Below, one piece after another: positions 9,486-42,945 of a DNA stretch of 64,000 nucleotides. Positions within the stretch are counted from its first letter, which is position 1; each line of letters starts with the position of its first letter. The notes beneath the pieces were generated by a model. It searched no databases. It was not told the DNA's origin and was given only the letters and a program-made list of their open reading frames with translations. This DNA comes from Escherichia phage vB_EcoM_SA20RB. The stretch lies in the sequence record OL960581; one strand, written 5' to 3'. A program made the position numbers and the translations under genes.

Positions 9486-10904
9486 TTATGGATAGGTATA
9501 GATGATACCAGTTTCTAAAGCAGTTTTATGAATGATGTATCCATTACGTGATTCTTGAACATCAACTTCTGGATAGTCTTTCATCATCTTCTGAAGAGTG
9601 TAACGATGCAAGTAGTATTTACTATCTGGATCTTCAGTTTTCCAATCTTTACCTTCTTCAGTCATTTTTTGGATTTCATCCATAACCCACCAACCGCACC
9701 AGATATAAGCTGAAGTACGATGTGGAAGAGGATGAACATAAGGTAATTCACCTTCTGGTTCCGGAGCAACTTTATCAGTTACCTGAACTTGACCTTCTGC
9801 TGTGATAGTTTTGCTATCATAATCAGTGGCAGTAACAGTTGCAGTAACTTCAATAGTTTGACTTCCAATAGATGATGTATCAACGGTGTATACATTAGTT
9901 GACCCTTCTACAGGAGAAGAATCTTTCTTCCATGAATACGTAATTTGTGCTTCTTCCGGAGCATCCGTAACATTAGCAGTAAATGTAGCCGAAGCATCTT
10001 GCTGAACATTAATAGAAGGAGGAGTCAATGTAACCTGTGGATTCATTGTCTTCTTATTAACTGTCAATGATACTTCATTAGAAGTAACTTCCTTTTCATT
10101 ATAATTTTCTGCAGTTACTTGGGCTACGCATTTAATTCTTTTTACTCCACTTGTAGTTGGAGTATAGTTAAATGTAGAGTTAGTTTCTCCACCAACTTGT
10201 GAATCATCTACATACCACTGATACGTGGCAGACGCTCCATCAGGTTGAGAAGCTAAGGCAGCAGTAAATTGAACCGGGGTTCCAATTACTCCAGCAGCAG
10301 GACTAGCAGGAGTTACTGCCAAGGTAGTTGTCTGCGTCTTTTTATTAACAGTCAGTGACACTTCATTAGAAGTAACTTCCTTTGTATCATAATCTGCCGC
10401 GGTTACTTGAGCTACACACTTAATTGTTTTAACTCCGCTTGTGGAAGGAGTGTAATTGAATGTAGCAGAAGTTGCTTCGCCTACAGGAGAACCGTCAACG
10501 TACCATTGATACGTAGCAGTTGCGCCAGATGGCTGTGAAGCTAAGGCAGCAGTAAATTCAACGGCTGTTCCGATTACTCCTTCTGGAGGACTATTAGGAG
10601 TTACAGCTAAGGTAGTTGTTTGTGTCTTATTTTGAACTGTGATAGTTATAGTAGCTTCTGCTGTTTCAGCATCAGTATCTGGAACTGGGTTTGTTGCAAC
10701 TACTTTAATAGTTTTTTGACCGGCAGGTCCTTTTAGTACATAACTAAAAGTTGCTTCAGTTCCATCTTGTGGAACATCGTCTACAGTCCAAGCATATGTA
10801 ATAGGTCCATCTCCAGTTTGACCACTGGGTGTAGCAGTAAACTGCTGAGTCTGATCTATAACTCCAGTAGGTGTTTTAGGAGTTATATCAACTGTAAAAG
10901 CCAT
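9486..10904 (-). CDS. hoc: Hoc, highly immunogenic outer capsid protein, with four Ig-like repeats
   Basis: 472-aa ORF; MAFTVDITPKTPTG N-terminus and conserved capsid-binding C-terminus (YVHPLP...IYTYP); internal 96-aa tandem duplication. Confidence 0.9.
   Translation of the reverse strand: MAFTVDITPKTPTGVIDQTQQFTATPSGQTGDGPITYAWTVDDVPQDGTEATFSYVLKGPAGQKTIKVVATNPVPDTDAETAEATITITVQNKTQTTTLAVTPNSPPEGVIGTAVEFTAALASQPSGATATYQWYVDGSPVGEATSATFNYTPSTSGVKTIKCVAQVTAADYDTKEVTSNEVSLTVNKKTQTTTLAVTPASPAAGVIGTPVQFTAALASQPDGASATYQWYVDDSQVGGETNSTFNYTPTTSGVKRIKCVAQVTAENYNEKEVTSNEVSLTVNKKTMNPQVTLTPPSINVQQDASATFTANVTDAPEEAQITYSWKKDSSPVEGSTNVYTVDTSSIGSQTIEVTATVTATDYDSKTITAEGQVQVTDKVAPEPEGELPYVHPLPHRTSAYIWCGWWVMDEIQKMTEEGKDWKTEDPDSKYYLHRYTLQKMMKDYPEVDVQESRNGYIIHKTALETGIIYTYP
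10053..10628 (-). repeat. Tandem duplication of a 288-bp Ig-like domain unit inside hoc
   Basis: Residues 93-188 and 189-284 are near-identical (KTQTTTLAVTP...SNEVSLTVNK). Confidence 0.7.
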
Positions 10905-24122: not shown

Positions 24123-26219
24123 TTATCCTTGAACGAACTTGTAAGGCATGTTTGCAATATCTATGCAAGATGCAATAATTCCAAGAGATGATTCTACTTT
24201 TTGTTTAACATTTGATGAAACAAATGATGCAAAGTCAACTCTGTCTTCTATTTCAATATCACCTGTCATTGCAACTACTTCACCAGTTTCCATTAGACGG
24301 TCACCGTCATAAATTACTGATTCGGTGAGTTCTTCCGTAGTCATAACTTCAGCTTGAATGAGTTTTGTATTATTAGATGTTGTTCCGTCATTATTAGAAG
24401 CATCAGTTATTTTATTAACTTTGACCATCAATCCGCGTGGTAGAATTACTTCAGCTTCTGTTGCTATTCCTAGACTTCCTGGATATACAACATTAACTTT
24501 ATGAGCTCCATCAATTGCCCATCCTATTTGAACTTTAACGTATTCAGGATTTTCTTTATACGCTCTTATTTCGTTTGGATTAATAGTTATTCCTTCTTCA
24601 TTTTTATCAACTGTCAATTCATTACGAGCTTCTGGTTCTAAAAGACCAATACCAGCATGTGTAATTCCAAAACGTCCAAAAATGATAGGAGTTAAAGAAG
24701 TAGATACAAAATTTCTGAAATAGAACACTTTATTTTTAACTAGTGCTTCGTATATAGGAGCAGTCATGCTTTGAGCACGATAAACTGTAATGCCTTCTGG
24801 TATACGATCACCATTTTCAAAAGCTGAATCTAAGTTATTTATAGCAGATTCAATTTCTTTTTCACTCATTACATCATATCGTTCTGGATTGTAACGACCC
24901 AAAAGAAGATTATTGATGTCAGTATATCCTGAACCACAATACTCTCTAATGCCGCGCTTTTGTGATGGAGTATATTTAGAACCATCACGGGCAATAGTAA
25001 TATCAATCATTGGACCTGCACCAATTCCAGAAAAGCTATAAATCATTCTTTTAAGGAATTTAGTTTTTGCTGCGTTCCAGGAATTTTTAGTTATTTCTTC
25101 CCAGACTTCATCTGGCTGCCCTTTACGAGTTTTATTATGTTTATCAAGCCAATTATCTTTATATTCTTCAAAGAATTGATTAACAGCTGCTGCGTATTTC
25201 TCTAAACATTTTATTGAAGTAGTTGGTTCATTTTTAATCGCATTAAGAATTACATCTTTAATTTTTTCAGAAACTTCATTAACCTCACTTTTTGAAAAGA
25301 ATTTATAATCATAGTGAAGTTCATTTGCAGTTCCTTCAGCAATAATTTTTGCTGTCTTTGTTTTAGAAGCTAATGAATTAATTCCAAGCTTCATTTCTTC
25401 TGCTTCGGGAATTAAAGGAGCGGTAGCAGGTTTATTGAAATTAGCTGCGGTAGATTCATACTTCTGGAATAATTCACTTTCAAATCTAGAAGATTCTAAT
25501 GATTGACTTTGCGCAATTGCTCTACGGGAAATTTTAACTTTAACGATTACAGCTTGGTCAGAACGTTTATCATTTTCTTGCGCAATAGATGCAGCAATTG
25601 CCTCATTTTTAGTTACTTGAGCTCCAGTATCTTTATTGATATAAACATCACCAACCTTCGATTCAACTTTAGTAAAGAGCTCGGTACTAATTTCCGGAAC
25701 TCCTGGAATGTCTTCTAGTGATACATTTTTGCGATGTATAAGAATATATGCATACTTTTTATCGTAATCCCAAAGTTCCTTAAGAAGGACGTATCTGCCG
25801 CCTGAGCGACTACGGATAAGTCTATCAGCAATAAGTTGAATTTGACGAGCTTGACCAGCAGTTTTAGACTTAAGAATACGGAGCATGCAGGCATCAATTT
25901 TATACTGACGCATCGTCTGCATCGCAACAGTAAAAACTGAATTGATGTAATTAATTGGGCTTGGACCGAGACCTTTTAATTTAGCAATTGAACCTTTAGC
26001 AGTTAATGTAAAAGGAACAATATGCATCATTTTATCGCCCATTTTTAAATCGCGATTAGTATCACCTCCAGATGTATAGGTACATAAACGAAAGCCTGGT
26101 TGTTCAATTGCGTCATCAACATGAACTGAAAAAATTTGCGGTATTTTCTTCTTTGGATTTAAGTTTGTAATCGGAAGAGTAGTATCTTCGTCAAATAATT
26201 CTGTAATGAGTTCCATCAT
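24123..26219 (-). CDS. alt: Alt ADP-ribosyltransferase
   Basis: 698-aa ORF starting ATGATG; R-S-E triad (VYRAQ, FVSTSL, TEAEVILPRG); late promoter upstream. Confidence 0.88.
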   Translation of the reverse strand: MMELITELFDEDTTLPITNLNPKKKIPQIFSVHVDDAIEQPGFRLCTYTSGGDTNRDLKMGDKMMHIVPFTLTAKGSIAKLKGLGPSPINYINSVFTVAMQTMRQYKIDACMLRILKSKTAGQARQIQLIADRLIRSRSGGRYVLLKELWDYDKKYAYILIHRKNVSLEDIPGVPEISTELFTKVESKVGDVYINKDTGAQVTKNEAIAASIAQENDKRSDQAVIVKVKISRRAIAQSQSLESSRFESELFQKYESTAANFNKPATAPLIPEAEEMKLGINSLASKTKTAKIIAEGTANELHYDYKFFSKSEVNEVSEKIKDVILNAIKNEPTTSIKCLEKYAAAVNQFFEEYKDNWLDKHNKTRKGQPDEVWEEITKNSWNAAKTKFLKRMIYSFSGIGAGPMIDITIARDGSKYTPSQKRGIREYCGSGYTDINNLLLGRYNPERYDVMSEKEIESAINNLDSAFENGDRIPEGITVYRAQSMTAPIYEALVKNKVFYFRNFVSTSLTPIIFGRFGITHAGIGLLEPEARNELTVDKNEEGITINPNEIRAYKENPEYVKVQIGWAIDGAHKVNVVYPGSLGIATEAEVILPRGLMVKVNKITDASNNDGTTSNNTKLIQAEVMTTEELTESVIYDGDRLMETGEVVAMTGDIEIEDRVDFASFVSSNVKQKVESSLGIIASCIDIANMPYKFVQG

Positions 26220-26270: not shown

Positions 26271-26457
26271 AATAATCTATTGGTAAGAGAGTACGATATA
26301 TTTCAAACTTTGGACCTTTTTCGTAGGCATCAAATGTTTCTGTAAATTTATTATAAGCATATGCATCTATAAATTCAATCATAATTTGTGATACAGAAGT
26401 AGAAACATCTCCACCTTCTTTTTGAGCAACGACAATTGTTTCTAAGTAAGCTTTCAT
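26269..26457 (-). CDS. Hypothetical small protein between gene 30 and alt
   Basis: 62-aa ORF with ATG start, overlaps ligase stop. Confidence 0.5.
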   Translation of the reverse strand: MKAYLETIVVAQKEGGDVSTSVSQIMIEFIDAYAYNKFTETFDAYEKGPKFEIYRTLLPIDY

Positions 26458-27917
26458 AGACCAGTTACCTCATGAAAATCACCAAATACATCCTCGAATG
26501 TATTAGCTTTAGTTTTATCTTCACGTAAACGAATCGCAATCGGAAGAAATAATTTAACGTAATCAGTGCGGCCATCAGATTTTAGCCAACCGTTGCATTC
26601 GCACTCTAGAATTTTTCCAATATAATAATTTTGGTTTTCCATAATGCGAGTACGGTCAAGTTCATGTGATTTTACACCGGCTTTATCTTTTAAGCCTGAA
26701 CCAGCATTTACTTTAATTTTTCCACACTCTGATTCAAGAATAAATCCACCTGCTTTAGTAGGGTCTTTACGGTGAGGATAAATTCCTACAATTTTTAAAT
26801 CAACATCAATTACTTCTTTAAATTTATAGAGATTTTTTGAACGAGCATTTTCCCACAATCCATCGGTATTTTTGAGAATAATACCTTCAAGACCTTGGTC
26901 AATATATTTTTTATAAATTACCTTAGCTTCATCTAGGTTATTTACTACCTGGTTTTCAATTAAAATTACTTTATCATATCCTGATGTCATTTGTTCTAGT
27001 TTAGAAAAACGTACATCATATTTTAAACGAAACGCCGGAAGACCGTATATTTCTACCAACGGGACATAATCCCAGACCTGAAACTTCATGCATTTGGCTT
27101 CTTTTTCGGAAATGGTTCCTTTTAAGGATTTATTGGCGATTCCATTAGAAGTAGTACGAGATTCCGCTACTTCGGCGAATTCTTTAGCTTTACTAATTTC
27201 AGGATAAGCATCAAAAAGAAAATCTAGGCCTTCTGGTTCCTTTTTAACTTGCTCATGGTATACCAATTCGCCATCAATTAACACACCTTCTGGATGAATC
27301 TGGCGGGCTTCAGCAGTCATTTTGATTAACTCTTCCTTAAGAAGATCTAATCCTAGATATTCATTACCAGCTCGTGATAAAAGACGAACATCATCTAATT
27401 CATCACCTCGAACTTCAGCAAAACACCGAGCTCCATCTGCTTTTAGCTGTGCAAAAGCTGGAAACTTGATATTCTTACTAATGCCTTTTTCATCATAAGA
27501 ACTTGCCAGCATTTGAGGTTGTTCAGGAATTAAACCTGGCCAAACTTTGTTTGCAATAGATACTGAAGCACCGCATTCAAGGTCTCGCATCATAACTCGA
27601 CGCAAAACTTCAACATCATCCTTTTTACCATCAGTGATATATCCAGTTAATTCCTCAATTGCAGCATTTCCAGTCAATTTCCGAGTAGCTAACGTGAATT
27701 CAATGAAGTCAAGCATATCGGTAATAGTCAGCATTCCAAAACTCTGGGTAGCAATACCAGGTTTAGGCCATTTCTTTATATAATACTGTAACCCACGAGA
27801 ATAAGTCAGACGATATACCCGTTTAAGCAATTCATTATCTTTATTCTTTTCAAGAATTGCTTGCTTCTGCTTAGTTGATCCAATAGATGCTATTTCATTC
27901 AGAATTTTAAGAATCAT
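26454..27917 (-). CDS. 30: ATP-dependent DNA ligase gp30
   Basis: 487-aa ORF; adenylation motif KADG (FAQLKADGARCF). Confidence 0.95.
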   Translation of the reverse strand: MILKILNEIASIGSTKQKQAILEKNKDNELLKRVYRLTYSRGLQYYIKKWPKPGIATQSFGMLTITDMLDFIEFTLATRKLTGNAAIEELTGYITDGKKDDVEVLRRVMMRDLECGASVSIANKVWPGLIPEQPQMLASSYDEKGISKNIKFPAFAQLKADGARCFAEVRGDELDDVRLLSRAGNEYLGLDLLKEELIKMTAEARQIHPEGVLIDGELVYHEQVKKEPEGLDFLFDAYPEISKAKEFAEVAESRTTSNGIANKSLKGTISEKEAKCMKFQVWDYVPLVEIYGLPAFRLKYDVRFSKLEQMTSGYDKVILIENQVVNNLDEAKVIYKKYIDQGLEGIILKNTDGLWENARSKNLYKFKEVIDVDLKIVGIYPHRKDPTKAGGFILESECGKIKVNAGSGLKDKAGVKSHELDRTRIMENQNYYIGKILECECNGWLKSDGRTDYVKLFLPIAIRLREDKTKANTFEDVFGDFHEVTGL

Positions 27918-28183
27918 TGTTCATCCTTCAGAGTTTGATTTACAGCTCTATTATAAATCAATTCATCATTAAGCTCAGGCAAAGACTTATGATATGTAGT
28001 TCTAACTTTATTTCCTTGCATCCAGTGCTTGACATAAATGAAACCTTGCTCTACACATTTTTTAAAAATTCGTTCGTCTTTTTGAGCTCGGAATTCTGGA
28101 TTGCATCTAAAAAATTGATTTACGTGACCGTAATCACGTGTAGTATTACCTTCATTTTCATAAATAGTGTGAACGACAAACAT
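27914..28183 (-). CDS. Hypothetical protein (T4 30.1 position)
   Basis: 89-aa ORF, start/stop overlaps with neighbours. Confidence 0.6.
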   Translation of the reverse strand: MFVVHTIYENEGNTTRDYGHVNQFFRCNPEFRAQKDERIFKKCVEQGFIYVKHWMQGNKVRTTYHKSLPELNDELIYNRAVNQTLKDEQ

Positions 28184-29046
28184 TAGAATGCTCCTTGGAA
28201 AATATTATCACCACTAGTAAATCTATTAAAATACCCTGCATCGCCAGGCTTGGTATAACTCCACGTATGGAATGGATTCATATGATATGGGTGTGTATAA
28301 TATGGATTATATGGATGTGTATAATATGGATTATACGGATTAAATCCAGGAGTTCTCCAGGTAGTGTTCCAACGAAAAGAATCGTTTTTAACCATCTTCT
28401 CAATTACATCTTTTATAGCTTTTTCACTATCAAAACTTTCTTTATTTTCCTTTGGTGAAAAAAGCTTATTTTCTATATCATTCCATGTATAAACTCGCTG
28501 TGCAGTTTTTGGAATTTTATCACGCTCTCCTCGAGCCATCCAATAAACCGGAACATTTAATATTTCACTCGCATGGTCGCAGTGGTGAGCGAGATCGTCA
28601 ATATAACAAATTACGTTATATTTCTCTTTTGCCTTTTTGAATAACTCTTCTTTTGAAGAATCATGACCACACATCATTACTTCTGAGAAGGCACCAGGAA
28701 AAAGAGCATTCAAATTAAATTGACGATTCAACAGAGCGTCAATAGAATCACCCAATGCTGTAACAGCTACAAAATTATAATCTTCTTTTAATTTGTTAAT
28801 TACACACAGGGCATCTTTATACGGAGACAAATAACGAATAAAATCTGAACGATTGTATTTTTCAATTAACTTGACACCAAGTTCTTCATCACAATTAAAG
28901 AGTTTACCTGGAGAAATAAATTTCTCATCTTGGATCATTTTTAAAATATGTTCTAACGGAAGATTATATTTCTGAGCAAAATAAGGAAGGCCTGATTGCC
29001 AGCTTAAACATACTCCATCAATATCAGTCAAAATAGTTGGCTTCAT
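28183..29046 (-). CDS. HAD-like phosphatase-fold protein with C-terminal YNPYYTHP tandem repeat (T4 30.2 position)
   Basis: 287-aa ORF; N-terminal DxDG motif (ILTDIDGV) and later YIDD; perfect tandem repeat near C-terminus. Confidence 0.6.
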   Translation of the reverse strand: MKPTILTDIDGVCLSWQSGLPYFAQKYNLPLEHILKMIQDEKFISPGKLFNCDEELGVKLIEKYNRSDFIRYLSPYKDALCVINKLKEDYNFVAVTALGDSIDALLNRQFNLNALFPGAFSEVMMCGHDSSKEELFKKAKEKYNVICYIDDLAHHCDHASEILNVPVYWMARGERDKIPKTAQRVYTWNDIENKLFSPKENKESFDSEKAIKDVIEKMVKNDSFRWNTTWRTPGFNPYNPYYTHPYNPYYTHPYHMNPFHTWSYTKPGDAGYFNRFTSGDNIFQGAF

Positions 29047-29501
29047 AGAGAGTCTCTTAATAGGTTTAACACATCAATAAATTCAGCTTCGGTTAGTATT
29101 GTATCATCTTTTGTTAGACCACTAGCCATGCTATGCTTCAAAACTTTTCCTTTCGAGGCTTGTAATGCATTGCGAAATCCCTTGTTTTGGATCGCTGCTT
29201 CAAAATATGCATTTGTGTATAATTCTTTCCATGCTTCGGAATATCTTGAAAACGGAGTTCCAAGCCAGAACAACGTGCCACGGTCCTGAGCTCTTGCATA
29301 AGACCTTCCAGCTTGTTGGGCGGCAAGCCCGGATAACCCAAATATACGACGCTGTTGTTCAACATTTTTCACCTTGCACCCTTGGAGGAATCCTTCAAGA
29401 CCTCCAAATTGAATACCATCCATAACGAAAGGCCATTTGGCGAAATTACTTAATGCACATGATGGCCACCTAAAATTGCTTCTAATCTCTAACTCAGACA
29501 T
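29043..29501 (-). CDS. NADAR (YbiA/DUF1768)-family protein (T4 30.3 position)
   Basis: Track ORF starts at TTG 29507; ATG at 29501 gives 152 aa; motif LSNFAKWPF..DG..F...E.F.Q..K resembles the NADAR signature. Confidence 0.7.
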   Translation of the reverse strand: MSELEIRSNFRWPSCALSNFAKWPFVMDGIQFGGLEGFLQGCKVKNVEQQRRIFGLSGLAAQQAGRSYARAQDRGTLFWLGTPFSRYSEAWKELYTNAYFEAAIQNKGFRNALQASKGKVLKHSMASGLTKDDTILTEAEFIDVLNLLRDSL

Positions 29502-29700
29502 TTTCAATGCTTATAATTTCAACATCAGCCCAATGACCATAGCAAGGAAGACGAAATTCAACTGGCCAGTTAGGGTCCTTTTCTAATATAATAGACTTAA
29601 CTTGTGGTTCTTCATGTTCATCTGTATACGGATTTTTATCTGTTACTTTATATGTGACCTTAATGTACTGAATTCCAAAAATCTTATTAATTATATTCAT
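29494..29700 (-). CDS. Hypothetical small protein
   Basis: 68-aa ORF, ATG start, operon packing. Confidence 0.5.
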   Translation of the reverse strand: MNIINKIFGIQYIKVTYKVTDKNPYTDEHEEPQVKSIILEKDPNWPVEFRLPCYGHWADVEIISIENV

Positions 29701-32568: not shown

Positions 32569-32805
32569 TTATTTACCTATTACAGTTTTAATATGGGTTG
32601 TTCCACGTTCTTTAAGAGTGGAAAGCAACTTTTGGCATTTTTCTAAATCAGATTTCCAACTATACGGCCTATCAATACAAACCCATTCTGACTTATAATA
32701 CTGTTTCCATTTAGAGAAAAAATACTTCTTATACTCTACAGCAAATGAAATGTTCTCGTTAGAATAAGAACTAATTGCTGTGAGCTGTACCAAACGAAAT
32801 TTCAT
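32569..32805 (-). CDS. Hypothetical protein (31.2 position)
   Basis: 78-aa ORF. Confidence 0.55.
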   Translation of the reverse strand: MKFRLVQLTAISSYSNENISFAVEYKKYFFSKWKQYYKSEWVCIDRPYSWKSDLEKCQKLLSTLKERGTTHIKTVIGK

Positions 32806-33386
32806 TATTCACCACAGAATTCGTTGATATTTTCCCAATTTAACTTATTCAAGTTTTTCTTAGGAACATTAAACACTTCAATACCTGCATTTCGCAGAAT
32901 ATCATCCCAGCCAGGTTTATTCTTATCGTATGTTTCGCAATAAACCAGTTTTTTAATTCCAGATTGAGCTATGGCTTTTGCACAATCCGGACAAGGAGAA
33001 AGTGTTACATACATAGTAGCACCTTCAATTGAAGAACCATTTCGCGCAGCAAACAAAATCGCATTTAGTTCAGCATGAATTTCATTTTTAGACGACCACT
33101 CAGAGTGAGCACTACGATGTTCTTTCGCCAAGACAAAACGATCAGTTGAACCAAATGATACACATTCAGGCTTATGACCTTGAATAATAGTATGTTTAGG
33201 CTTATTTAGCAACCAACCTTGCTCAACAGCATAATCGCAGCAATTCACACCCCCGGCAGGTGAACCATTATATCCGGTAGAAATAATACGTCCATTCTTT
33301 TCAATTACCGCTCCTACCTTCCAGGAGCAACATTTTGATTCTTGTGATACTAAATATGCAATTTGAAGTACTGTACTCGCTTTCAT
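32805..33386 (-). CDS. cd: dCMP deaminase
   Basis: 193-aa ORF with zinc-binding deaminase motifs HAE...PCxxC (HAELNAI, SPCPDCAKAI). Confidence 0.93.
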   Translation of the reverse strand: MKASTVLQIAYLVSQESKCCSWKVGAVIEKNGRIISTGYNGSPAGGVNCCDYAVEQGWLLNKPKHTIIQGHKPECVSFGSTDRFVLAKEHRSAHSEWSSKNEIHAELNAILFAARNGSSIEGATMYVTLSPCPDCAKAIAQSGIKKLVYCETYDKNKPGWDDILRNAGIEVFNVPKKNLNKLNWENINEFCGE

Positions 33387-33721
33387 TTCATAATCACCAG
33401 ATAAGCAGATTTAGCAGTTTCAACACGATAAATTTCGTGACGAAGTTTAGTTATACTTTTAATAACAGAACTAATTATATTCTGCCCATCTTTAAAGCGG
33501 TTTTTCTTATCAATAAAAATTGCACCAACCATCTTTTTGTGAAGCTCAACAGGATACTTCGTCACAATAATAGCATCATACACAGAAGGATGAATACTGT
33601 TCACCAGAGTATCGTTCATTAAAGTTATTCTAATGAACTGTGCTGTTTCAGAATCAAGCGCTCTATGATCGCCAGTATCATTTTCAAGACAATTATCAAT
33701 TATATCAGTTAAATTCATCAT
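33383..33721 (-). CDS. Hypothetical protein (cd.1 position)
   Basis: 112-aa ORF. Confidence 0.55.
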   Translation of the reverse strand: MMNLTDIIDNCLENDTGDHRALDSETAQFIRITLMNDTLVNSIHPSVYDAIIVTKYPVELHKKMVGAIFIDKKNRFKDGQNIISSVIKSITKLRHEIYRVETAKSAYLVIMK

Positions 33722-33954
33722 AGTACGCCATACACCCTTTGTGCTTCAACTAATCCATCAAAATCCAGTTTAAGATGTGTTATTTGGTCACCATCACCTG
33801 GATTCACAATTACTAATACTGAACGAGGAGTTTCGGTAATAACACGAACCGATGTTTCAGGAAATCGTTCAGAAACCTTATTTACCAATTCCTGAGCAAA
33901 TAGTTTAACTTTTTCTTGGAATTCTTTAGTAGTAATTGGTTTTTCACTTAGCAT
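33718..33954 (-). CDS. Hypothetical protein (cd.2 position)
   Basis: 78-aa ORF. Confidence 0.55.
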   Translation of the reverse strand: MLSEKPITTKEFQEKVKLFAQELVNKVSERFPETSVRVITETPRSVLVIVNPGDGDQITHLKLDFDGLVEAQRVYGVL

Positions 33955-34475
33955 GTTGATCCCAGCTCCTTACTTTCAACGTTTTTAACTAATTTGACAG
34001 AAACTAATTCGGCATCTTGGGTAATCATTACCGGGCCTTCTTCATACTCTTCAAGATATTCTAGAGCTTTCTTTTTAGCTTCTTCCTTCGTATCAGTTTG
34101 AGCATAGATATAAAACATACAACCAGTAATACCTACTACTTTCCACTTAATTTCTTTATCAGTTTTAATTTCAAATTTACTGATAGAGTCATCTTTTTGA
34201 ACTTCTTCGAAAAAATAATATTCTGACATATAAGTAATTGAAAATAGCGGGCTTTCTTTATAAGATTCGCCCATTACATCAACAGCTTTATACCAGCAAT
34301 CGTCAATTTCGCGTTTAATGCTAATAACATTTTTCGCAGGATCTATTTTTACTTTAAATGAATTTTCCCCAATAAACTGAGCAATTCGTTTATTAGCCCC
34401 ACAAGTTTCATTAAAAATATCTTTATATCCAGCTTTAAAGCGATAAACCTTATCTTCTTCAAACCATTCGCTCAT
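33948..34475 (-). CDS. Hypothetical protein (cd.3 position)
   Basis: 175-aa ORF; early-type promoter element upstream. Confidence 0.6.
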   Translation of the reverse strand: MSEWFEEDKVYRFKAGYKDIFNETCGANKRIAQFIGENSFKVKIDPAKNVISIKREIDDCWYKAVDVMGESYKESPLFSITYMSEYYFFEEVQKDDSISKFEIKTDKEIKWKVVGITGCMFYIYAQTDTKEEAKKKALEYLEEYEEGPVMITQDAELVSVKLVKNVESKELGSTC

Positions 34476-34537
34476 TTCAATTTCCTCATTTGTTTTGGTA
34501 GAGCTATAATATCACAACTCTACCGTAAAGTAAACTA

Positions 34538-34813
34538 TTAAATTGCTTTGAATTCTGATGTCTGTGATTCAAAGCGAATATCGCCTTTGATGACTAGCTC
34601 AGCATCAAGACCGAATACGACAATAATATGAGCAGAACCTGGATACAGAGTAATTGCAATAGAATCCACCTGGTCTGGAAGCAAAGTATTCAATACATGA
34701 GTCACTTGAGCATGAATTCGAAGCTCAGCTGCATTATCAAGCTTTTCAAACATATTATTAGCAATAATTTGGCTAAACACTACTTCTACGATTTTAGAAT
34801 AAGTTGGAAACAT
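34538..34813 (-). CDS. Hypothetical protein (cd.4 position)
   Basis: 91-aa ORF. Confidence 0.55.
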   Translation of the reverse strand: MFPTYSKIVEVVFSQIIANNMFEKLDNAAELRIHAQVTHVLNTLLPDQVDSIAITLYPGSAHIIVVFGLDAELVIKGDIRFESQTSEFKAI

Positions 34814-34815
34814 AT

Positions 34816-35016
34816 TTACCTCACATAATTTTCTTCAAGCCAATCAATAACATCCAACGCATTATCAAAAGTTGAACCATCTACTTTATCTTCTGTTTCA
34901 TAATCAAGAACATCTAAGCCTACTCTTCCATCAACAATAGGCCATAAACAAAATAGATATTTCTTTTCTTTTTCAATTTTATCACAAAGTCGATAAATCT
35001 TTTCTATGTTATTCAT
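34816..35016 (-). CDS. Hypothetical small protein (cd.5 position)
   Basis: 66-aa ORF. Confidence 0.5.
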   Translation of the reverse strand: MNNIEKIYRLCDKIEKEKKYLFCLWPIVDGRVGLDVLDYETEDKVDGSTFDNALDVIDWLEENYVR

Positions 35017-35205
35017 AAGTTTTCCATGGTAAAGGCAGTTTAGTTTTCTTTACTGTTAGTTCAACATCAGGATTCTTTTCTCTTAATTTAAGGCATTCCT
35101 CCCAAGCTCTGATTTCACTAGTGAATACACAAAATTGTCCATTACTAGTACCAACTAAACCACTATTTACAATAACAATAGACCAAGTTTCATGATGCCA
35201 CGCCA

Positions 35206-35206
<1 letters not shown>
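35009..35206 (-). CDS. Hypothetical small protein
   Basis: 65-aa ORF overlapping neighbours. Confidence 0.5.
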
Positions 35207-36409
<1,203 letters not shown>

Positions 36410-36413
<4 letters not shown>

Positions 36414-36646
36414 TTATTTTTCTCAACTAATGATTGAATATAATCATGCAGGTCTTTAGATGCTTTACCCCACTTATTTTGATATTCATTTTTAAGATTA
36501 GCACGTGATTGAGCTAATAAAACATCATTGGTTGGAGGTAAAGATTCTAATCGTTGAATCTGGCGTCCATAAATCATTGCAGCCATCTCGGATTCATAAA
36601 TCAATCCTTTGAGATGTTCAAATTGATGCCATGAAATCATTTGCAT
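36410..36646 (-). CDS. Hypothetical small protein
   Basis: 78-aa ORF. Confidence 0.5.
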
Positions 36647-36936
36647 TTATCCTCTTTTAACTCTTGGCGATAATAACATATCATAGTTTTTTGGTCATGT
36701 ACATATCGTTTTACATCATTAAGCCAAATACGAAATTCCTGGGAATCTTCGAATGGCATACCGACCCAAGCTTTACCATCAATAACTTTAACTTGCCAGG
36801 ATAGTTTAGCTTCATCATATGACTTTATCTGCACAGGCCAATTAGGATGAACTGTTTCTTTCTTTACTTCTAGAGGCTTTGTCGAACAACCAACTAGAAG
36901 ACCAATAGATAATATTACTGCTGATAGTTTAATCAT
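36637..36936 (-). CDS. Outer-membrane spanin (lipoprotein; T4 PseT.2-like)
   Basis: 99-aa ORF with signal peptide and lipobox LLVGC; directly downstream of i-spanin-like gene. Confidence 0.65.
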   Translation of the reverse strand: MIKLSAVILSIGLLVGCSTKPLEVKKETVHPNWPVQIKSYDEAKLSWQVKVIDGKAWVGMPFEDSQEFRIWLNDVKRYVHDQKTMICYYRQELKEDKCK

Positions 36937-37286
36937 TTAGAAAGGTCCTGGATGTCTTCTGCGAACTTGTTGAAGGAGTTGTTGATTTGTTTTTCAACCA
37001 ATCCTGGCTTATGAGCCACCACATCCGCCTTCTTTGCGTCTTTGCGCAGTTTTTCATTTTCACGCTCAATAGCAGCAATTGCCTCACGATTTTTATTATT
37101 CATCGCATCAATATAATTATACTGAATTCGCAAATTATCTAATGCTAAAGCGTTTTCATTGGCCGTTTTTGTAATTTCTACAACAGACGTTTCTAATCTT
37201 TCAATTTTACTTTTTAAAATTAAAGAAGTTCCGCCCAATGCAATTACAATTAATAGCAAGCCTGCTGTCGTATTACTTAATTGCAT
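36933..37286 (-). CDS. Inner-membrane spanin (T4 PseT.3-like)
   Basis: 117-aa ORF with N-terminal TM helix (AGLLLIVIALGGTSLIL) and coiled-coil periplasmic part. Confidence 0.65.
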   Translation of the reverse strand: MQLSNTTAGLLLIVIALGGTSLILKSKIERLETSVVEITKTANENALALDNLRIQYNYIDAMNNKNREAIAAIERENEKLRKDAKKADVVAHKPGLVEKQINNSFNKFAEDIQDLSK

Positions 37287-37783
37287 AAAGTTTTAATAAC
37301 CTCTATAATATCGTCTTGAGAAAGACCGTTAATTAAAATATGATGTTCAGCAGGAGATTTAGAAATTTTAAAGCATGCCTCAACATCTTCTGCCATATCC
37401 GATGCGCTACGATTTGGATTACTGATTCCAAGACGATGTTTTCCCGTCAAAGGATTAACGATGATGTAGCATTTACAATTATTGATATGAACATTAGGTT
37501 GAGTCTGATTAATGAACACATCACAATCATATTTCGCAAGCTGATTTTCTAAAAAGACTTTCATCTCCTCAACTGCATCAGGAAGCATATCACGGGCTTG
37601 CTCAAGACGACGATTTCGATATTCTTTAATGGTCGTTTTCCGCTTGACTTGCTTAGCTAAATCTTTCTTAAGATCGGTGATATATCCAACTCGACGATTT
37701 CCTTTAAATACAGAAATCCCATCTGTAGTATCACCGTATGCTTCAACGACCATCTCAGTAGTAATAAGCTGCAAATCCATCAT
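37277..37783 (-). CDS. alc: Alc, inhibitor of host transcription
   Basis: 167/168-aa ORF (two adjacent ATGs) at T4 alc position. Confidence 0.75.
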   Translation of the reverse strand: MMDLQLITTEMVVEAYGDTTDGISVFKGNRRVGYITDLKKDLAKQVKRKTTIKEYRNRRLEQARDMLPDAVEEMKVFLENQLAKYDCDVFINQTQPNVHINNCKCYIIVNPLTGKHRLGISNPNRSASDMAEDVEACFKISKSPAEHHILINGLSQDDIIEVIKTLCN

Positions 37784-37811
37784 AAAGTCCTCATGTTATG
37801 TCAGTAAAATT

Positions 37812-37841
37812 ACTATAACACAACACGAGGGACTTGTAAAC
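37812..37841 (-). promoter_or_regulatory. T4 early-type promoter before alc
   Basis: Minus strand GTTTACaagtccctcgtgttgtgtTATAGT; near-identical to element at 22033-22062. Confidence 0.45.
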
Positions 37842-37844
37842 AGC

Positions 37845-39432
<1,588 letters not shown>

Positions 39433-39440
39433 AATAAAAT

Positions 39441-39454
39441 GGGCCTTGCGGCCC
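39441..39454 (-). terminator. Hairpin GGGCC-TTGC-GGCCC after nrdB
   Basis: 5-bp GC stem 6 nt after nrdB stop. Confidence 0.4.
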
Positions 39455-39459
39455 ACTCC

Positions 39460-40629
39460 TTAAAAATATTTTTTAAAACTCATCATAACTTTATCATCAA
39501 CATCATTATCAATCTGTGCTACAAGGTAAGATGACAGTTCTACTTCTTGTGGCGCGGATTGAACATTATCAGAATTAAGATATTCACGAATCCAAGGATA
39601 CGGGTGTTTAACCGGAGCATCGGTAATTGGGCATGGAAGACCGCACTGTTTCATACGAGATACAGTTAAGTAATCAATAAAGCTCCACATGCTATTTGTA
39701 TTTAATCCAGGAACATCACCATCTTTAAATAAATGAACTGCCCAGTCTTTTTCTTGACGGTTAACTTCCATGAAAATATCAACTGCTTCTTGTTCACACT
39801 CTTGGGTGATTTTAACCCATTCATCACCATCAGTGCCAAGTTGAAGTTGACGAATAATATATTGGGTGCCTTTAAGGTGAAGCTGCTCATCACGTGCAAT
39901 GAACTTCATAATCTTGGCATTACCTTCCATGATTTCCATGTTCTTATGGAAGTTAAAGGTACATGCGAAAGATACATAAAAACGAATAGCTTCCAATGCG
40001 TTGATTACGTGCAGGCAGAGGTAAAGAGATTTCATTAGTGCTCGTTTAGTACATTCAACAACTTTGCCTAACTCTTCTTTACGAAATCCTTCTGATAAAA
40101 TTCCTTCATAATCTTCAACCGCATTCTGATATTCACGAGTCTTAACTAGAACATCATCATAATAGCGACCGATAGATTCAGCACGTTTCATGATAGCTTC
40201 ATCTAGTACAATCTCATCAAATACCTTCGATGGATCAGTATAAAGATTTCGCATGATATGAGTATATGAACGACTGTGAATAGTTTCACTAAAAGTCCAT
40301 GTAGCAACCCATGTATCAAGACTTGGGTCTGAAATTAATGACATAAGTACAGCAGACGGTGCACGACCCTGAATGCTATCTAGAAGTGATTGATACTTCA
40401 AGTTATTAGTAAAAATATCTTGCTGATACTGAGGAAGCTTGTTAAATTGTGCAGCATCCATCATCAAGTTTACTTCTTCAGGACGCCAGAAAAATGATAA
40501 TTGCTTTTCGGTTAAATCTTCAAAAACTTTATGGCGTTGAATATCATAACGCGCAATACCAAGACCTGAACCGAAGAACATAGGTTCTTTTAAAACATCA
40601 ACTGGATTTGTATTAAAAACTGTGCTCAT
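39460..40629 (-). CDS. nrdB: Ribonucleotide reductase small subunit, uninterrupted
   Basis: 389-aa continuous ORF, no intron-sized break. Confidence 0.95.
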   Translation of the reverse strand: MSTVFNTNPVDVLKEPMFFGSGLGIARYDIQRHKVFEDLTEKQLSFFWRPEEVNLMMDAAQFNKLPQYQQDIFTNNLKYQSLLDSIQGRAPSAVLMSLISDPSLDTWVATWTFSETIHSRSYTHIMRNLYTDPSKVFDEIVLDEAIMKRAESIGRYYDDVLVKTREYQNAVEDYEGILSEGFRKEELGKVVECTKRALMKSLYLCLHVINALEAIRFYVSFACTFNFHKNMEIMEGNAKIMKFIARDEQLHLKGTQYIIRQLQLGTDGDEWVKITQECEQEAVDIFMEVNRQEKDWAVHLFKDGDVPGLNTNSMWSFIDYLTVSRMKQCGLPCPITDAPVKHPYPWIREYLNSDNVQSAPQEVELSSYLVAQIDNDVDDKVMMSFKKYF

Positions 40630-40680
40630 AAATTTTCCGCTTAGTTAATAGATAGTGACTCGTCCGTGAGTCAAATTATA

Positions 40681-42945
40681 TCATAATTTACAGGATGAAC
40701 AATCTTCAGCTTTTGGAGTTTCTATTTCATAATCATCAGTACCAGAACCGTCGCGAGTATTATGATAATAGAAATTTTTTCCGCCAAAATACCAAAAGTA
40801 CAAAAGGTCATCAATCATTATTGACATTGGAACCTTTCCTTTTGGAAAAATCTGCGGGTCATAATATGTATTCGCTGAAGCTGATTGACATACCCATTTC
40901 AGCATAATAGCTACCTGCGTAAGATAAGGTTTATTACCTTTCTTAGCTAATTTCCATGTATAATCATATAGGTCTATGTTATGTTCAATATTGGGCACGA
41001 CTTGATTAAAGGAACCCTCTTTTGATTCTTTAACAGAGACTGGTCCACGTGGAGGCTCGATACCGTTTGTACTGTTAGAAACTTGGGAAGATGACTCACA
41101 TGGCATAAGTGCTGATAATGTGCTATTACGGATGCCAAAGAGCTTAAGGTCTTCCCGCAGCGACGACCAGTCACAAACGTATTTTGGAGCTGCGATTTGG
41201 TCAATCTTTTTATTGTACCAGTCGATAGGTAATTCGCCTCGAGACCAACGAGTGTCTGAATAATATTCGCAAGGTCCTTTTTCTTTGGCGAGCTTAATGG
41301 ATGCTTTAATGAGTCCATACTGTAATCTCTCAAATAGTTCATGTGTTAAATCGTTAGCATCTTCATAAGAAGCAAAGTTACTTGCCAACCAAGCTGCATA
41401 GTTAGTAACACCTACACCAAGATTTCGACGCTTTTTAGCCTTTTCTGCTTCAGGAACTGGATATCCTTGGTAATCCAAAAGATTATCAAGAGCACGAACT
41501 TGGACTTCTGCTAATTCATTAATTTTATCTTGGTCTTGCCAATCGAAGTTATCTAACACAAATGCAGATAACGTGCACAATCCAATTTCAGCATCAGGAC
41601 TATTCACATCATTTGTTGGAATAGCAATTTCACAGCACAAGTTACTCTGACGAATAGGTGCCTTTTCACGAATAAATGGAGTATAGTTATTCGTATTATC
41701 AATGAACTGTACATAAATCCTTGCTGTTCCTGATCGTTCAGTCATGAGCAATTCAAACAGTTCACGGGCTTTAATACGCTTTTTGCGAATATTAGGGTCT
41801 TTTTCTGCGGCTTCATACAATTCACGGAAACGGTCTTGGTCTTTAAAATAAGAATAATAAAGCTCGCCACCCATTTCGTGTGGACTGAACAAAGTAATGT
41901 AGTCGTTCTTTCCGAATCGTTCCATCATCAAATCATTCAGTTGAACGCCATAATCCATATGACGGATACGGTTTTCTTCTACGCCTTTGTTATTTTTCAA
42001 AACGAGAAGATTTTCAACTTCCAAATGCCAAATAGGATAATAAGCAGTAGCAGCGCCGCCACGAATTCCGCCTTGTGAACATGATTTAACAGCAGTCTGA
42101 AAATGTTTCCAAAAAGGAATAACGCCAGTATGACGCACTTCACCTGTGCCAATCTTAGAACCTTCAGCACGAATCATACCAACGTTAATGCCAATTCCAG
42201 CTCGTTTAGAAATATACTCAACAATTGAAGCAGAAGCCTTATTGATAGACTTCAGCGAATCACCTGCTTCAATAACAACGCATGAACTAAACTGTCGAGT
42301 TGGAGTACGACAACCAGCCATAATAGGAGTTGGCAATGAAATCTGTCGAGTAGATACTGCTTCATAAAAACGGATAACGTGTTTTAATCTATCAACAGGT
42401 TCATCTTGATGCAATGCCATTCCAATAGTCATAAATGCAAACTGTGGAGTTTCATAAATTTGACCAGTGGTTTTATCTTTAACTAGATATTTTTCTTTTA
42501 ATTGCATCGCCCCGGAATAAGTAAATTCCATATCCCGCTCATGCTTAATTTTTGATTCTAAAAATGTAATTTCTTCGGCAGAATATTTTGACAACAATTC
42601 AGGGTCGTATTTACCTTCATTTACACAGTAAGAAATATGATCAATAAATGAACGTGGTTCATACTGCCCATAAACATGCTTACGAAGAGCGAACATTAAA
42701 CAGCGTGCAGCTACATATTGATAATCAGGCTCTTCAACTGAAATAGAATTCGCAGCAGCCTTAATGACAATGGTTTGAATGTCATCAGTTGTCATTCCAT
42801 CACGGAGATATGATTTAATATTTTCATATAATTCATAAGGATCTACAGATGTTCCTTCAGCTGCCCAAGATAAAACTTTAATAATTTTTTGCGGGTCAAA
42901 GCTCTGAGAAACACCACTACTTTTGATAACATTAATTAATTGCAT
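40681..42945 (-). CDS. nrdA: Ribonucleotide reductase large subunit
   Basis: 754-aa ORF; active site NLCCEI and C-terminal CSSCKL redox pair. Confidence 0.95.
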   Translation of the reverse strand: MQLINVIKSSGVSQSFDPQKIIKVLSWAAEGTSVDPYELYENIKSYLRDGMTTDDIQTIVIKAAANSISVEEPDYQYVAARCLMFALRKHVYGQYEPRSFIDHISYCVNEGKYDPELLSKYSAEEITFLESKIKHERDMEFTYSGAMQLKEKYLVKDKTTGQIYETPQFAFMTIGMALHQDEPVDRLKHVIRFYEAVSTRQISLPTPIMAGCRTPTRQFSSCVVIEAGDSLKSINKASASIVEYISKRAGIGINVGMIRAEGSKIGTGEVRHTGVIPFWKHFQTAVKSCSQGGIRGGAATAYYPIWHLEVENLLVLKNNKGVEENRIRHMDYGVQLNDLMMERFGKNDYITLFSPHEMGGELYYSYFKDQDRFRELYEAAEKDPNIRKKRIKARELFELLMTERSGTARIYVQFIDNTNNYTPFIREKAPIRQSNLCCEIAIPTNDVNSPDAEIGLCTLSAFVLDNFDWQDQDKINELAEVQVRALDNLLDYQGYPVPEAEKAKKRRNLGVGVTNYAAWLASNFASYEDANDLTHELFERLQYGLIKASIKLAKEKGPCEYYSDTRWSRGELPIDWYNKKIDQIAAPKYVCDWSSLREDLKLFGIRNSTLSALMPCESSSQVSNSTNGIEPPRGPVSVKESKEGSFNQVVPNIEHNIDLYDYTWKLAKKGNKPYLTQVAIMLKWVCQSASANTYYDPQIFPKGKVPMSIMIDDLLYFWYFGGKNFYYHNTRDGSGTDDYEIETPKAEDCSSCKL

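Follow-up and report, generated by a model that had tools for sequence, protein, structure and literature searches.

We propose that the product of gene 30.2 (gp30.2) is probably an NT5C-like, capped HAD phosphomonoesterase that carries a disordered tail of the T-even type, and that the repeat within this tail represents a near-neutral, in-frame polymorphism. The stretch of DNA analyzed (64 kb; "the window") comes from a Tequatrovirus, a T4-like phage, and the open reading frame under study is the homologue of the T4 early-region gene 30.2, which is uncharacterized in T4; no experimental study of gp30.2 was found in the literature searched. The N terminus of the protein, read from the sequence, is MKPTILTDIDGVCLSW. 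The protein is 100% identical to a protein of Shigella phage vb_GEC_SH_GT, is homologous to T4T gp30.2 and matched PHROG 420 with an E value of 1.6e-89. T4 gp30.2 (278 aa) and the Tevenvirinae homologues of PHROG 420 are orthologues of about 87-88% identity at the same locus, and the gene order 30.3-30.2-30.1-30-alt is shared by the window and T4T (Table 1). Homologues were detected in 1439 phage records, and far more than a thousand sequenced T4-like phages carry the gene. The wider family comprises 1326 representatives.

Table 1. Coordinates of gene 30.2, its predicted protein regions, its repeat tract and its neighbors in the window.
Feature	Position	Strand	Basis or remark
Gene 30.2 homologue (287 aa + stop codon)	28183..29046	-	ORF list and sequence
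Predicted HAD-superfamily phosphatase core with cap, residues 1-195	28462..29046	-	AF2, Foldseek and pN/pS
HAD motif I, D8-I-D10-G-V12 (putative nucleophile Asp and acid/base Asp)	29011..29025	-	Alignments and AF2
Predicted alpha-helical C1 cap, residues about 13-75	28822..29010	-	AF2 helices between motifs I and II
HAD motif II, T96	28759..28761	-	At least 90% conserved; end of strand 91-96
HAD motif III, K132	28651..28653	-	Invariant in A1 and A2; directly before helix 133-142
HAD motif IV, D150-D151 (YIDD, residues 148-151)	28594..28599	-	End of strand 145-150
Amphipathic helix 207-220 (SEKAIKDVIEKMVK), core-tail linker	28387..28428	-	Helix in both AF2 models
Aromatic/Pro/His-rich tail, predicted disordered, residues 225-287	28186..28374	-	pLDDT and composition
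24-nt tandem repeat encoding PYNPYYTH	28282..28338	-	TRF and direct reading
Repeat copy 1	28315-28338	-	Direct reading
Repeat copy 2	28291-28314	-	Direct reading
Partial third copy (CCATATCAT)	28282-28290	-	Direct reading
Second in-frame indel hotspot, TAGTGG	28211..28216	-	DNA alignment of tails
AAGGAG Shine-Dalgarno for 30.1	28191..28196	-	Inside last codons (Q-G-A) of 30.2
30.3 = AdfN (NADAR, anti-DarTG1), upstream neighbor	29043..29507	-	PF08010, E 1.4e-68
30.1 (DUF3045), downstream neighbor	27914..28183	-	Pfam match; order as in T4T
DNA ligase, beyond 30.1	26454-27917		Pfam match
alt, beyond DNA ligase	24123-26219		Pfam match

The original prediction had read a HAD-type phosphohydrolase from a DxDG motif at the start of this ORF and a YIDD further on. 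Both elements are present in the ORF, and the assignment was borne out by the invariant or nearly invariant catalytic residues, a confidently modeled core, structural matches and links to NT5C. Residues 1-195 are a predicted HAD-superfamily phosphatase. Sequence searches of Pfam, NCBIfam and PDB with the 287-aa protein gave no useful match (for Pfam, even at E ≤ 1), and the sole PDB sequence match, RanGAP (E 1.6), was dismissed as noise. The AF2 model showed pLDDT values >90 across residues 1-195, a region with a pN/pS of 0.03. When this predicted model was used as the query, Foldseek returned 117 PDB matches at E ≤ 1e-3; nearly all of the best 50 of them were HAD-superfamily enzymes, at a probability of 1.00. 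The matches in BFVD were phage HAD proteins and 5'-nucleotidases.

Conservation of the catalytic motifs was judged over 51 close and 52 distant sequences. Motif I has the canonical HAD form DxDx[T/V], for which DxDG was a less exact description. In both alignments (A1 and A2), D8 and D10 never vary, and G11 is either invariant or reaches at least 90% conservation. In motif IV, D151 never varies in A2, and in A1 the conservation of D150 and of D151 is 90% or more. Each motif lies at its canonical strand end in the AF2 model, with motif I at the end of strand 4-7. The predicted cap consists of helices 16-26, 32-40, 46-49 and 54-65 (pLDDT >90) and is similar in a second AF2 model. It holds the highly conserved segment W16-QSGLPYFAQKY, in which W16 shows no variation in A1 and at least 90% conservation in A2, and in the alignment with 2jao the Phe of DGVLADF stands opposite W16.

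The nearest relatives of gp30.2 appear to be the 5'(3')-deoxyribonucleotidases (NT5C), through a link that is transitive and structural only. The NT5C enzymes (PF06941; human/mouse cdN/mdN 2jao, 2i7d and 1q92; Staphylococcus epidermidis 3bwv) share with the 30.2 core the HAD Rossmannoid fold, a DxDGV motif I, the Thr and Lys residues, a DD motif IV, a helical C1 cap and a similar length (about 190-200 aa overall), at an identity of about 17-23%. Unlike them, the 30.2 family has a nearly invariant cap segment, WQSGLPYFAQKYNLP, and gp30.2 has a C-terminal extension of 90 residues made up of a helix and a disordered repeat tail. Among the Foldseek matches listed, the highest target TM-scores (0.6-0.71) were those of the deoxyribonucleotidases 3bwv, 2jao, 2i7d and 4yih; since E-values were equal or better for other HAD subfamilies (YfnB, haloacid dehalogenases) than for nucleotidases, Foldseek does not single out a substrate class. 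Profiles of the 30.2 family gave their best PDB matches with 2jao (E 0.039) and 3bwv (E 2e-4), and the Pfam NT5C model was matched by 15 of the 52 distant family members at E ≤ 0.01. The family member P0208, which aligns to residues 5-197 of gp30.2 (E 5e-16), passed the NT5C gathering score (34.1 vs 24.8 bits), and the window protein itself fell below the gathering threshold of PF06941. Fusion proteins of the family (P0151, P0204, P0102, P0142 and others) have extra regions without Pfam domains, which therefore gave no clue to function.

By comparison with the HAD superfamily, residues 1-195 would constitute a Mg2+-dependent, catalytically competent phosphomonoesterase on a divergent phage branch of the NT5C-like group. 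D8 would attack the phosphate to form an aspartyl-phosphate intermediate and D10 would act as the acid/base, with T96 and K132 probably holding the phosphate and D150/D151 the Mg2+. Since the predicted active site is capped, a small phosphoester is the most likely substrate. The leading candidate is a (deoxy)nucleoside monophosphate, which would be processed as part of the nucleotide/DNA-metabolism programme of the phage. T-even phages salvage host dNMPs, however, so that a phosphatase acting on dNMPs in general would appear to waste them, which counts against this candidate. Placement among the capped NT5C-like HAD enzymes suggests a concrete and cheap assay for one of the T4 early genes that remain "hypothetical."

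We also considered that gp30.2 could be a Pnk- or Tpp1-like polynucleotide 3'-phosphatase that would heal the ends of DNA or RNA for the ligase whose gene lies two places downstream. Gene 30.2 lies directly upstream of (30.1-)DNA ligase in Tequatrovirus, Klebsiella phage Roth68, Acinetobacter phage W16 and Aeromonas phage SW69-9, but this linkage is weak evidence because gene order is conserved generally across T4-like phages. A weak match to PHROG 415, "polynucleotide kinase" (E 0.0018), a match of one of the 52 relatives to Pfam HAD_PNKP (E 0.0032) and the presence of some phage kinase-phosphatases low in the BFVD match list point in the same direction. Matches to NT5C, however, greatly exceeded those to PNKP in both number and strength, and the 30.2 protein itself did not match Pfam PNKP (PF25109). 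The window already encodes, about 7 kb from 30.2, a Pnk whose HAD_PNKP domain is genuine (E 1.3e-58). Its T4 counterpart PseT, a polynucleotide kinase/3'-phosphatase, also belongs to the phage HAD phosphatases and has DxDxT as its nucleophile motif, but its HAD_PNKP domain represents a different HAD branch: comparison of the 30.2 family profile with the phosphatase domain of the window's Pnk gave an hhalign probability of 2.4%. Caps are typical of HAD enzymes that act on small molecules, whereas macromolecule-directed HAD enzymes are cap-less. The PseT phosphatase is cap-less and acts on polynucleotide ends, and the model of gp30.2 has a four-helix C1 cap. An end-healing role for gp30.2 is therefore improbable in our estimation.

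The upstream neighbor of 30.2 encodes AdfN, a NADAR protein with anti-DarTG1 function (PMC11825919), and the stop codon of 30.3 overlaps the start codon of 30.2 (ATGA). Placement among the HAD phosphatases also marks gp30.2 as a candidate partner of AdfN. gp30.2 might work with the translationally coupled AdfN, either as the "additional T-even protein" that AdfN may need or as an anti-defense accessory that dephosphorylates an ADP-ribose-derived or nucleotide product or signal. A PF08010 gene is directly upstream of 30.2 in the window, T4T, a Mosigvirus-like contig and Acinetobacter phage W16, and some host systems couple HAD 5'-nucleotidases to enzymes that process ADPr (PMC9503650). Free dNMP-type molecules can also trigger defense (bioRxiv 10.64898/2026.01.15.699771). 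The 30.2 family is, however, much wider than its pairing with AdfN. No PF08010 was found among the upstream ORFs tested in Klebsiella phage Roth68 (five ORFs) and Aeromonas phage SW69-9 (one adjacent ORF), members from Vibrio and Pseudomonas jumbo phages occur in other contexts, and the 1326 family representatives are mainly stand-alone proteins of about 200 aa. Phage T2 has a 30.2 homologue and yet is restricted by a system that senses m6-dAMP (bioRxiv 10.64898/2026.01.15.699771). Neither PADLOC nor anti-defense families matched 30.2, PADLOC gave no match for four relatives either, and the literature searched contained no experimental link between AdfN and 30.2. Taken together, we regard a functional partnership with AdfN as unlikely. 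A more specific version is that gp30.2 is a counter-defense accessory. Its disordered aromatic tail would anchor the enzyme to AdfN or to the machinery of replication and dNTP synthesis, and there it would clear a product or alarm molecule derived from nucleotides, for example a phosphoester derived from ADP-ribose or a modified dNMP set free when host DNA is degraded. We give this version quite a small chance; if it were true, gp30.2 would be the "additional T-even protein" behind the phage specificity of AdfN, and tail length variants would tune partner binding.

The C-terminal part of gp30.2 differs markedly from the core. The linker helix (residues 207-220 in one AF2 model and 205-220 in the other) belongs to a segment with a pN/pS of 0.24, and pN/pS in the tail that follows is 0.31, vs 0.03 in the core. 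The tail is weakly constrained and lineage-specific. It contains Y9 T8 P8 N7 F6 G5 H4 W3 among its 63 residues, and its pLDDT was mainly <50 in the window AF2 model (10-residue block means 35-54), although low pLDDT values do not by themselves prove disorder. Tails of 30 aa or more are present in 58 of 100 close homologues vs 4 of 142 distant family representatives. A search of 5.8 billion proteins with the tail alone returned just three fragmentary 30.2 gene calls, indicating that the tail is not a portable module. Judged from these sequence comparisons, the tail appears to be confined to the 30.2 proteins of T4-type phages; it would have been added only there, and it is translated.

The tail of T4 gp30.2 has the same layout as that of the window protein, consisting of a helix, WNTTWRTPGFNPYN, a PY/His-rich segment and the end ...GDNIFQGAF. 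The T4 tail contains NPYNPYHPYQTHPFQTW and a GIEYLYNRPT motif; the window protein, unlike T4, has an allele with two copies of PYNPYYTH and a degenerate DAGYFNRFT in place of GIEYLYNRPT. Fold-back of the conserved GIEYLYNRPT motif onto the core was also considered, but it was not supported by the second AF2 run, carried out on the T4-type tail, in which pLDDT stayed <50 throughout (31-42).

The tail may have no function of its own and may simply be tolerated, slippage-made low complexity that is kept in frame only for coupling to the ribosome-binding site (RBS) and start of 30.1, a reading that we consider possible but doubtful. Hardly any distant family members have the tail, tails of different genera do not align, constraint on the tail is relaxed and its sequence is predicted to be disordered. 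Its most conserved stretch coincides with the AAGGAG and TAATG signals of 30.1: the 30.2 stop and 30.1 start overlap as TAATG (28181-28185), an RBS is annotated at the equivalent site in phages SV76 and U115, and the embedded RBS, as a constraint at the DNA level, can explain the invariant ...NIFQGAF end of 30.2. The pN/pS of the tail is nevertheless still well below 1. The segment WNTTWRTPG, which is far from the RBS, was invariant in 20 of the 20 Tequatrovirus alleles compared, and the F/L-NPYN that follows it varied in one of the 20. Other genera have independently retained aromatic/proline-rich tails, many of them with a G-[IL]-E-Y-L-x-x-Q-P-T motif, which points to selection on the peptide. 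Under the reading that we prefer, the tail would most likely serve as a flexible, "sticky" docking segment.

The tandem repeat lies within this tail, which around it reads ...FNPYNPYYTHPYNPYYTHPYHMNPFHTW.... TRF reported a period of 24, 2.3 copies, 93% matches and a score of 98. The repeat had been described as perfect, which is true of the peptide, since the two PYNPYYTH copies are identical, and does not hold for the DNA, in which the units CCGTATAATCCATATTATACACAT and CCATATAATCCATATTATACACAC are identical at 22 of 24 positions, with two synonymous third-codon differences. Three TRF arrays with a score of at least 50 were found in the whole window, and this repeat is its sole tandem repeat with a period of 6-60 and at least 90% identity. 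No comparable tandem repeat appeared in 100 first-order Markov simulations, so the repeat is well beyond chance.

The repeat had also been predicted to be prone to slippage, and comparison of copy number among related phages showed that it does vary, from one to three copies. One copy was found in D5505, two copies plus PYN in RPN226 and three copies in BYEP01 (a single record each), whereas exactly two copies, counted with a 192-nt synthetic three-copy query, were found in the window and in at least 57 GenBank phage genomes. An exact-pattern scan for the copy junction found none in IMG/VR and one metagenome contig, which has two copies; alleles with more than three copies were seen neither in relatives nor in the IMG/VR and metagenome contig scans. 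The units of D5505 and BYEP01 combine parts of copy 1 with parts of copy 2, which is what misalignment within a two-copy allele would be expected to produce. The two synonymous differences between the copies are fixed and common to diverged phages, which, together with the prevalence of the two-copy form over single records of the others, indicates that the tract is old and stable. The surroundings of the repeat are an indel hotspot of 9-nt ATCCATAT-like repeats. We suggest that the doubled PYNPYYTH arose as an old 24-nt duplication within this patch, with units being gained or lost in frame through replication slippage or unequal recombination. The outcome would be a near-neutral length polymorphism of one to three copies rather than a genetic switch.

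Like simple-sequence-repeat loci of phase variation, the tract shows slippage-type differences in copy number among close, nearly identical phages, and it is accompanied by the ATCCATAT-like hotspot and a second one at TAGTGG, which encodes SG in the window and SGSG in Shfl2, ECML-134, G4500 and SV76. The original prediction had accordingly raised the possibility of a contingency locus, which would switch or tune gp30.2 at high frequency by phase or antigenic variation. Unlike such loci, the tract consists of 2.3 copies of a 24-nt unit, a multiple of 3, rather than a long hypermutable array of a short unit. All 21 alleles inspected are in frame with the same C terminus, their indels all being multiples of 3, so that neither the frame nor the downstream C terminus is ever lost; this indicates a slippage-driven length polymorphism, not an on/off locus. 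Promoter switching is not apparent either: promoter-like sites in the repeat DNA were at shuffle expectation, no terminators were found in the tract, and an RNA role was rejected after finding no Rfam families and an RNA folding z-score of +0.44. gp30.2, moreover, would be an intracellular enzyme rather than a surface antigen. With the two-copy form stable across at least 57 genomes, a contingency function is highly improbable.

The PrP octarepeat PHGGGWGQ and FUS-like Tyr "sticker" domains are analogies for coding repeats and Tyr-rich disorder. The 30.2 repeat may be likened to them in its unit of eight residues, which includes a single His and several aromatics, its variable copy number and its predicted disorder, but it differs in having no sequence homology to them and only one to three copies. 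The repeat serves mainly as a caution, since what looks remarkable in the peptide of a phage enzyme here proves to be a slowly varying in-frame length polymorphism in a tail predicted to be disordered, and not a switch. Tail haplotypes of the T4 type and the window type also recombine, as in phage Ozark.

The original prediction for the 287-aa product of gene 30.2 was a HAD-type phosphohydrolase, and the N-terminus ILTDIDGVCLSW and the YIDD motif on which it was based are both present. Since the protein alone had no match in Pfam, NCBIfam or PDB sequences, its fold assignment rests on motifs, predicted structure, fold search and a link to NT5C. Across 51 close and 52 distant homologues, D8, D10 and K132 never varied. 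D151 was likewise fixed among the distant homologues and reached at least 90% conservation among the close ones; for G11, W16, T96 and D150, invariance or conservation of at least 90% was seen in one set or in both. Together they coincide exactly with HAD motifs I-IV. In the AlphaFold model, residues 1-195 (the core) had pLDDT >90, each motif lay at its canonical position, the end of a strand, with four helices (residues 16-65) intervening between motifs I and II. Foldseek against PDB gave 117 matches at E <= 1e-3, and the best 50 of the 117 were almost all HAD-superfamily enzymes (probability 1.00). The highest target-normalised TM-scores among the matches listed (0.6-0.71) belonged to 5'(3')-deoxyribonucleotidases, and a viral structure library returned phage HAD proteins and 5'-nucleotidases. 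Family profiles matched S. epidermidis deoxyribonucleotidase-like 3bwv (E 2e-4) and mouse cdN 2jao (E 0.039). Pfam NT5C was matched by 15 of the 52 distant members; one of these, P0208, exceeded the NT5C gathering score and could be aligned with the window protein over residues 5-197 of the latter (E 5e-16). Motif conservation, model, fold matches and NT5C link together support the HAD reading well, and several GenBank records already label the protein HAD-like hydrolase, phosphatase or 5'-nucleotidase.

On this basis we interpret gp30.2 as a divergent, NT5C-like phosphatase of the nucleotidase type, with putative chemistry and substrate. In HAD enzymes, a cap over the active site suggests that the substrate is a small phosphoester, not a polymer end. 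The true Pnk of the same window is also a HAD phosphatase (HAD_PNKP), but its domain showed no relation to the 30.2 family at the profile level. An exhaustive profile search found 1326 family representatives at 50% identity, most of them 190-210 aa, i.e. the core alone. The protein gp30.2 is a divergent representative of an enzyme type already known, and its lineage-specific tail is predicted to be disordered.

The window is a segment of a T4-like (Tequatrovirus) genome, with the T4 gene order 30.3, 30.2, 30.1, 30, alt.1, alt. The product is 100% identical to a Shigella phage vb_GEC_SH_GT protein and ~87-88% identical to T4 gp30.2; 1439 phage records contain homologues. Its group, PHROG 420, is labelled "unknown function", and gp30.2 was mentioned nowhere in the literature searched. 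From 30.3 through 30.2 and 30.1 to 30, the stop of each gene overlaps the start of the next (ATGA, 29043-29046; TAATG, 28181-28185; ATGA, 27914-27917), suggesting translational coupling of the four consecutive genes, and the AAGGAG Shine-Dalgarno of 30.1 (28191-28196) sits within the final codons of 30.2. In Tequatrovirus and in T4-like phages of Klebsiella, Acinetobacter and Aeromonas, 30.2 is found just ahead of (30.1 and) DNA ligase. Also noted downstream was a cluster for nucleotide and nucleic-acid metabolism (32805-42945, minus strand).

Features of the 30.2 region, the metabolism cluster and the tail repeat
Feature	Position	Strand	Evidence
PF08010 NADAR protein (30.3/AdfN), full length, 154 aa	29043-29507	-	PF08010 E 1.4e-68
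ORF under study (30.2), 287 aa	28183-29046	-	ORF list, sequence
Repeat, full 24-nt unit, copy 1	28315-28338	-	direct reading
Repeat, full 24-nt unit, copy 2	28291-28314	-	direct reading
Repeat, partial third unit	28282-28290	-	direct reading
DUF3045 protein (30.1)	27914-28183	-	Pfam
ATP-dependent DNA ligase (30)	26454-27917	-	Pfam
62-aa ORF	between DNA ligase and Alt genes	-	
Alt ADP-ribosyltransferase	24123-26219	-	Pfam
dCMP deaminase	32805-33386	-	
Pnk	35206-36114	-	
RNA ligase 1	37845-39005	-	
NrdB	39460-40629	-	
NrdA	40681-42945	-	

Gene 30.3 encodes AdfN, which removes DarT1 ADP-ribosylation; full-length alleles are associated with DarTG1 resistance, the frameshifted RB69 allele is sensitive, and the authors considered that an additional T-even protein may be needed (PMC11825919). 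This possible need makes gp30.2, by position only, a candidate partner of AdfN. The NADAR gene lies directly upstream of 30.2 in the window (ATGA overlap), T4-likes, a Mosigvirus-like contig and an Acinetobacter phage, whereas the upstream ORFs that were tested in Klebsiella Roth68 and Aeromonas SW69-9 included no NADAR gene. The main value of the analysis lies in this candidate link and in a testable function for a T4 gene so far uncharacterised. Inside 30.3, a 75-aa out-of-frame ORF (29138-29365, minus strand) occupies the place of the T4-annotated 30.3'.

Distant family members adjoin radical-SAM/QueE genes or replication genes. In Vibrio phage VH1_2019 (KVP40-like; locus L029, 2501-5190), the member has QueE, of 7-deazaguanine synthesis, and a radical-SAM protein as neighbours, a different context, that of base modification. 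The 302-aa metagenomic protein P0013 joins a 30.2 core directly to DUF3045 (30.1-like) in one reading frame, without the aromatic tail; it represents a natural fusion or else a read-through/assembly artefact. GenBank naming is inconsistent: 30.1 homologues are "putative baseplate tail tube cap" (JLBYU31, teqsoen), 30.2 of 303Ecol101PP is "RNA repair pathway DNA polymerase beta", and the 30.2 homologue P0076 of Acinetobacter phage AB1I1M-1 bears the NCBI name "DNA ligase".

Beyond the core, residues 196-224 (the linker) contain a predicted amphipathic helix, and residues 225-287 (the tail) mostly had pLDDT <50; in a second model, for which a T4-type allele was used together with an alignment containing many tail-bearing homologues, the tail again stayed low (31-42). 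The 63-residue tail (Y9, T8, P8, N7, F6, G5, H4, W3) almost lacks aliphatic and acidic residues. Among close (Tevenvirinae) homologues, 58 of 100 had a tail of at least 30 aa, against only 4 of 142 distant representatives. Tails of different genera could not be aligned; they are repeatedly rich in aromatics and proline, and many close with G-I-E-Y-L-x-x-Q-P-T, of which DAGYFNRFT is the window's degenerate version. When the tail alone was searched against 5.8 billion proteins, nothing but fragments of 30.2 itself came back. Among 20 Tequatrovirus alleles pN/pS rose from 0.03 (core) to 0.24 (linker) and 0.31 (tail), so the tail is translated and under weak constraint. The very end of the protein is invariant; as its codons overlap the AAGGAG ribosome-binding site and TAATG stop/start of 30.1, it may be conserved for DNA-level reasons. 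The compared loci L011-L025 show two tail haplotypes, T4-type (...HPYQTHPFQTWNYIKPGGIEYLYNRPT...) and window-type (...THPYHMNPFHTWSYTKPGDAGYFNRFT...), and phage Ozark is an apparent recombinant, T4-type in the first half of the tail and window-type in the second.

The tail carries the tandem peptide repeat first noted (...FNPYNPYYTHPYNPYYTHPYHMNPFHTW...), for which TRF reported a period of 24 at 2.3 copies with 93% matches. It had been called perfect, which holds for the peptide and fails for the DNA, as the two full units differ at two synonymous sites (22/24 nt identical). No other tandem repeat in the 64-kb window combines a period of 6-60 with an identity of 90% or more, and none arose in 100 Markov simulations. 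Among alleles on the same tail haplotype, PYNPYYTH occurs once in D5505 (279 aa), twice in the window and G50 (287 aa) and also in Shfl2 (289 aa, with one more SG at the TAGTGG hotspot), twice plus PYN in RPN226 (290 aa) and three times in BYEP01 (295 aa). The predicted proneness to slippage was thus supported by real, in-frame and infrequent variation among relatives. The two-copy form was found in at least 57 GenBank phages, including the window, G50 and Shfl2, and likewise in one metagenome contig. In D5505 the sole unit, and in BYEP01 the middle one, are chimeric between copies 1 and 2, as would be expected from misaligning a two-copy allele. Diverged phages have the same two synonymous inter-copy differences, so the duplication is old and mostly stable. 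Indels in the tail DNA cluster at short ATCCATAT-like units and at TAGTGG (28211-28216), present once in the window (SG) and twice (SGSG) in Shfl2, ECML-134, G4500 and SV76 (loci L012, L014, L015 and L017). All were multiples of three. Neither frame nor promoter switching is possible, and the suggested contingency locus was not supported. The tract showed no promoter-like excess, terminator, Rfam family or unusual RNA structure. Another repeat in the window (10048-10628; 288-nt unit, 2.0 copies, 78% identity, TRF score 726) resembles a duplication, within a coding gene, of a domain of ~96 aa, which could, as a guess, be an Ig-like decoration-protein domain.
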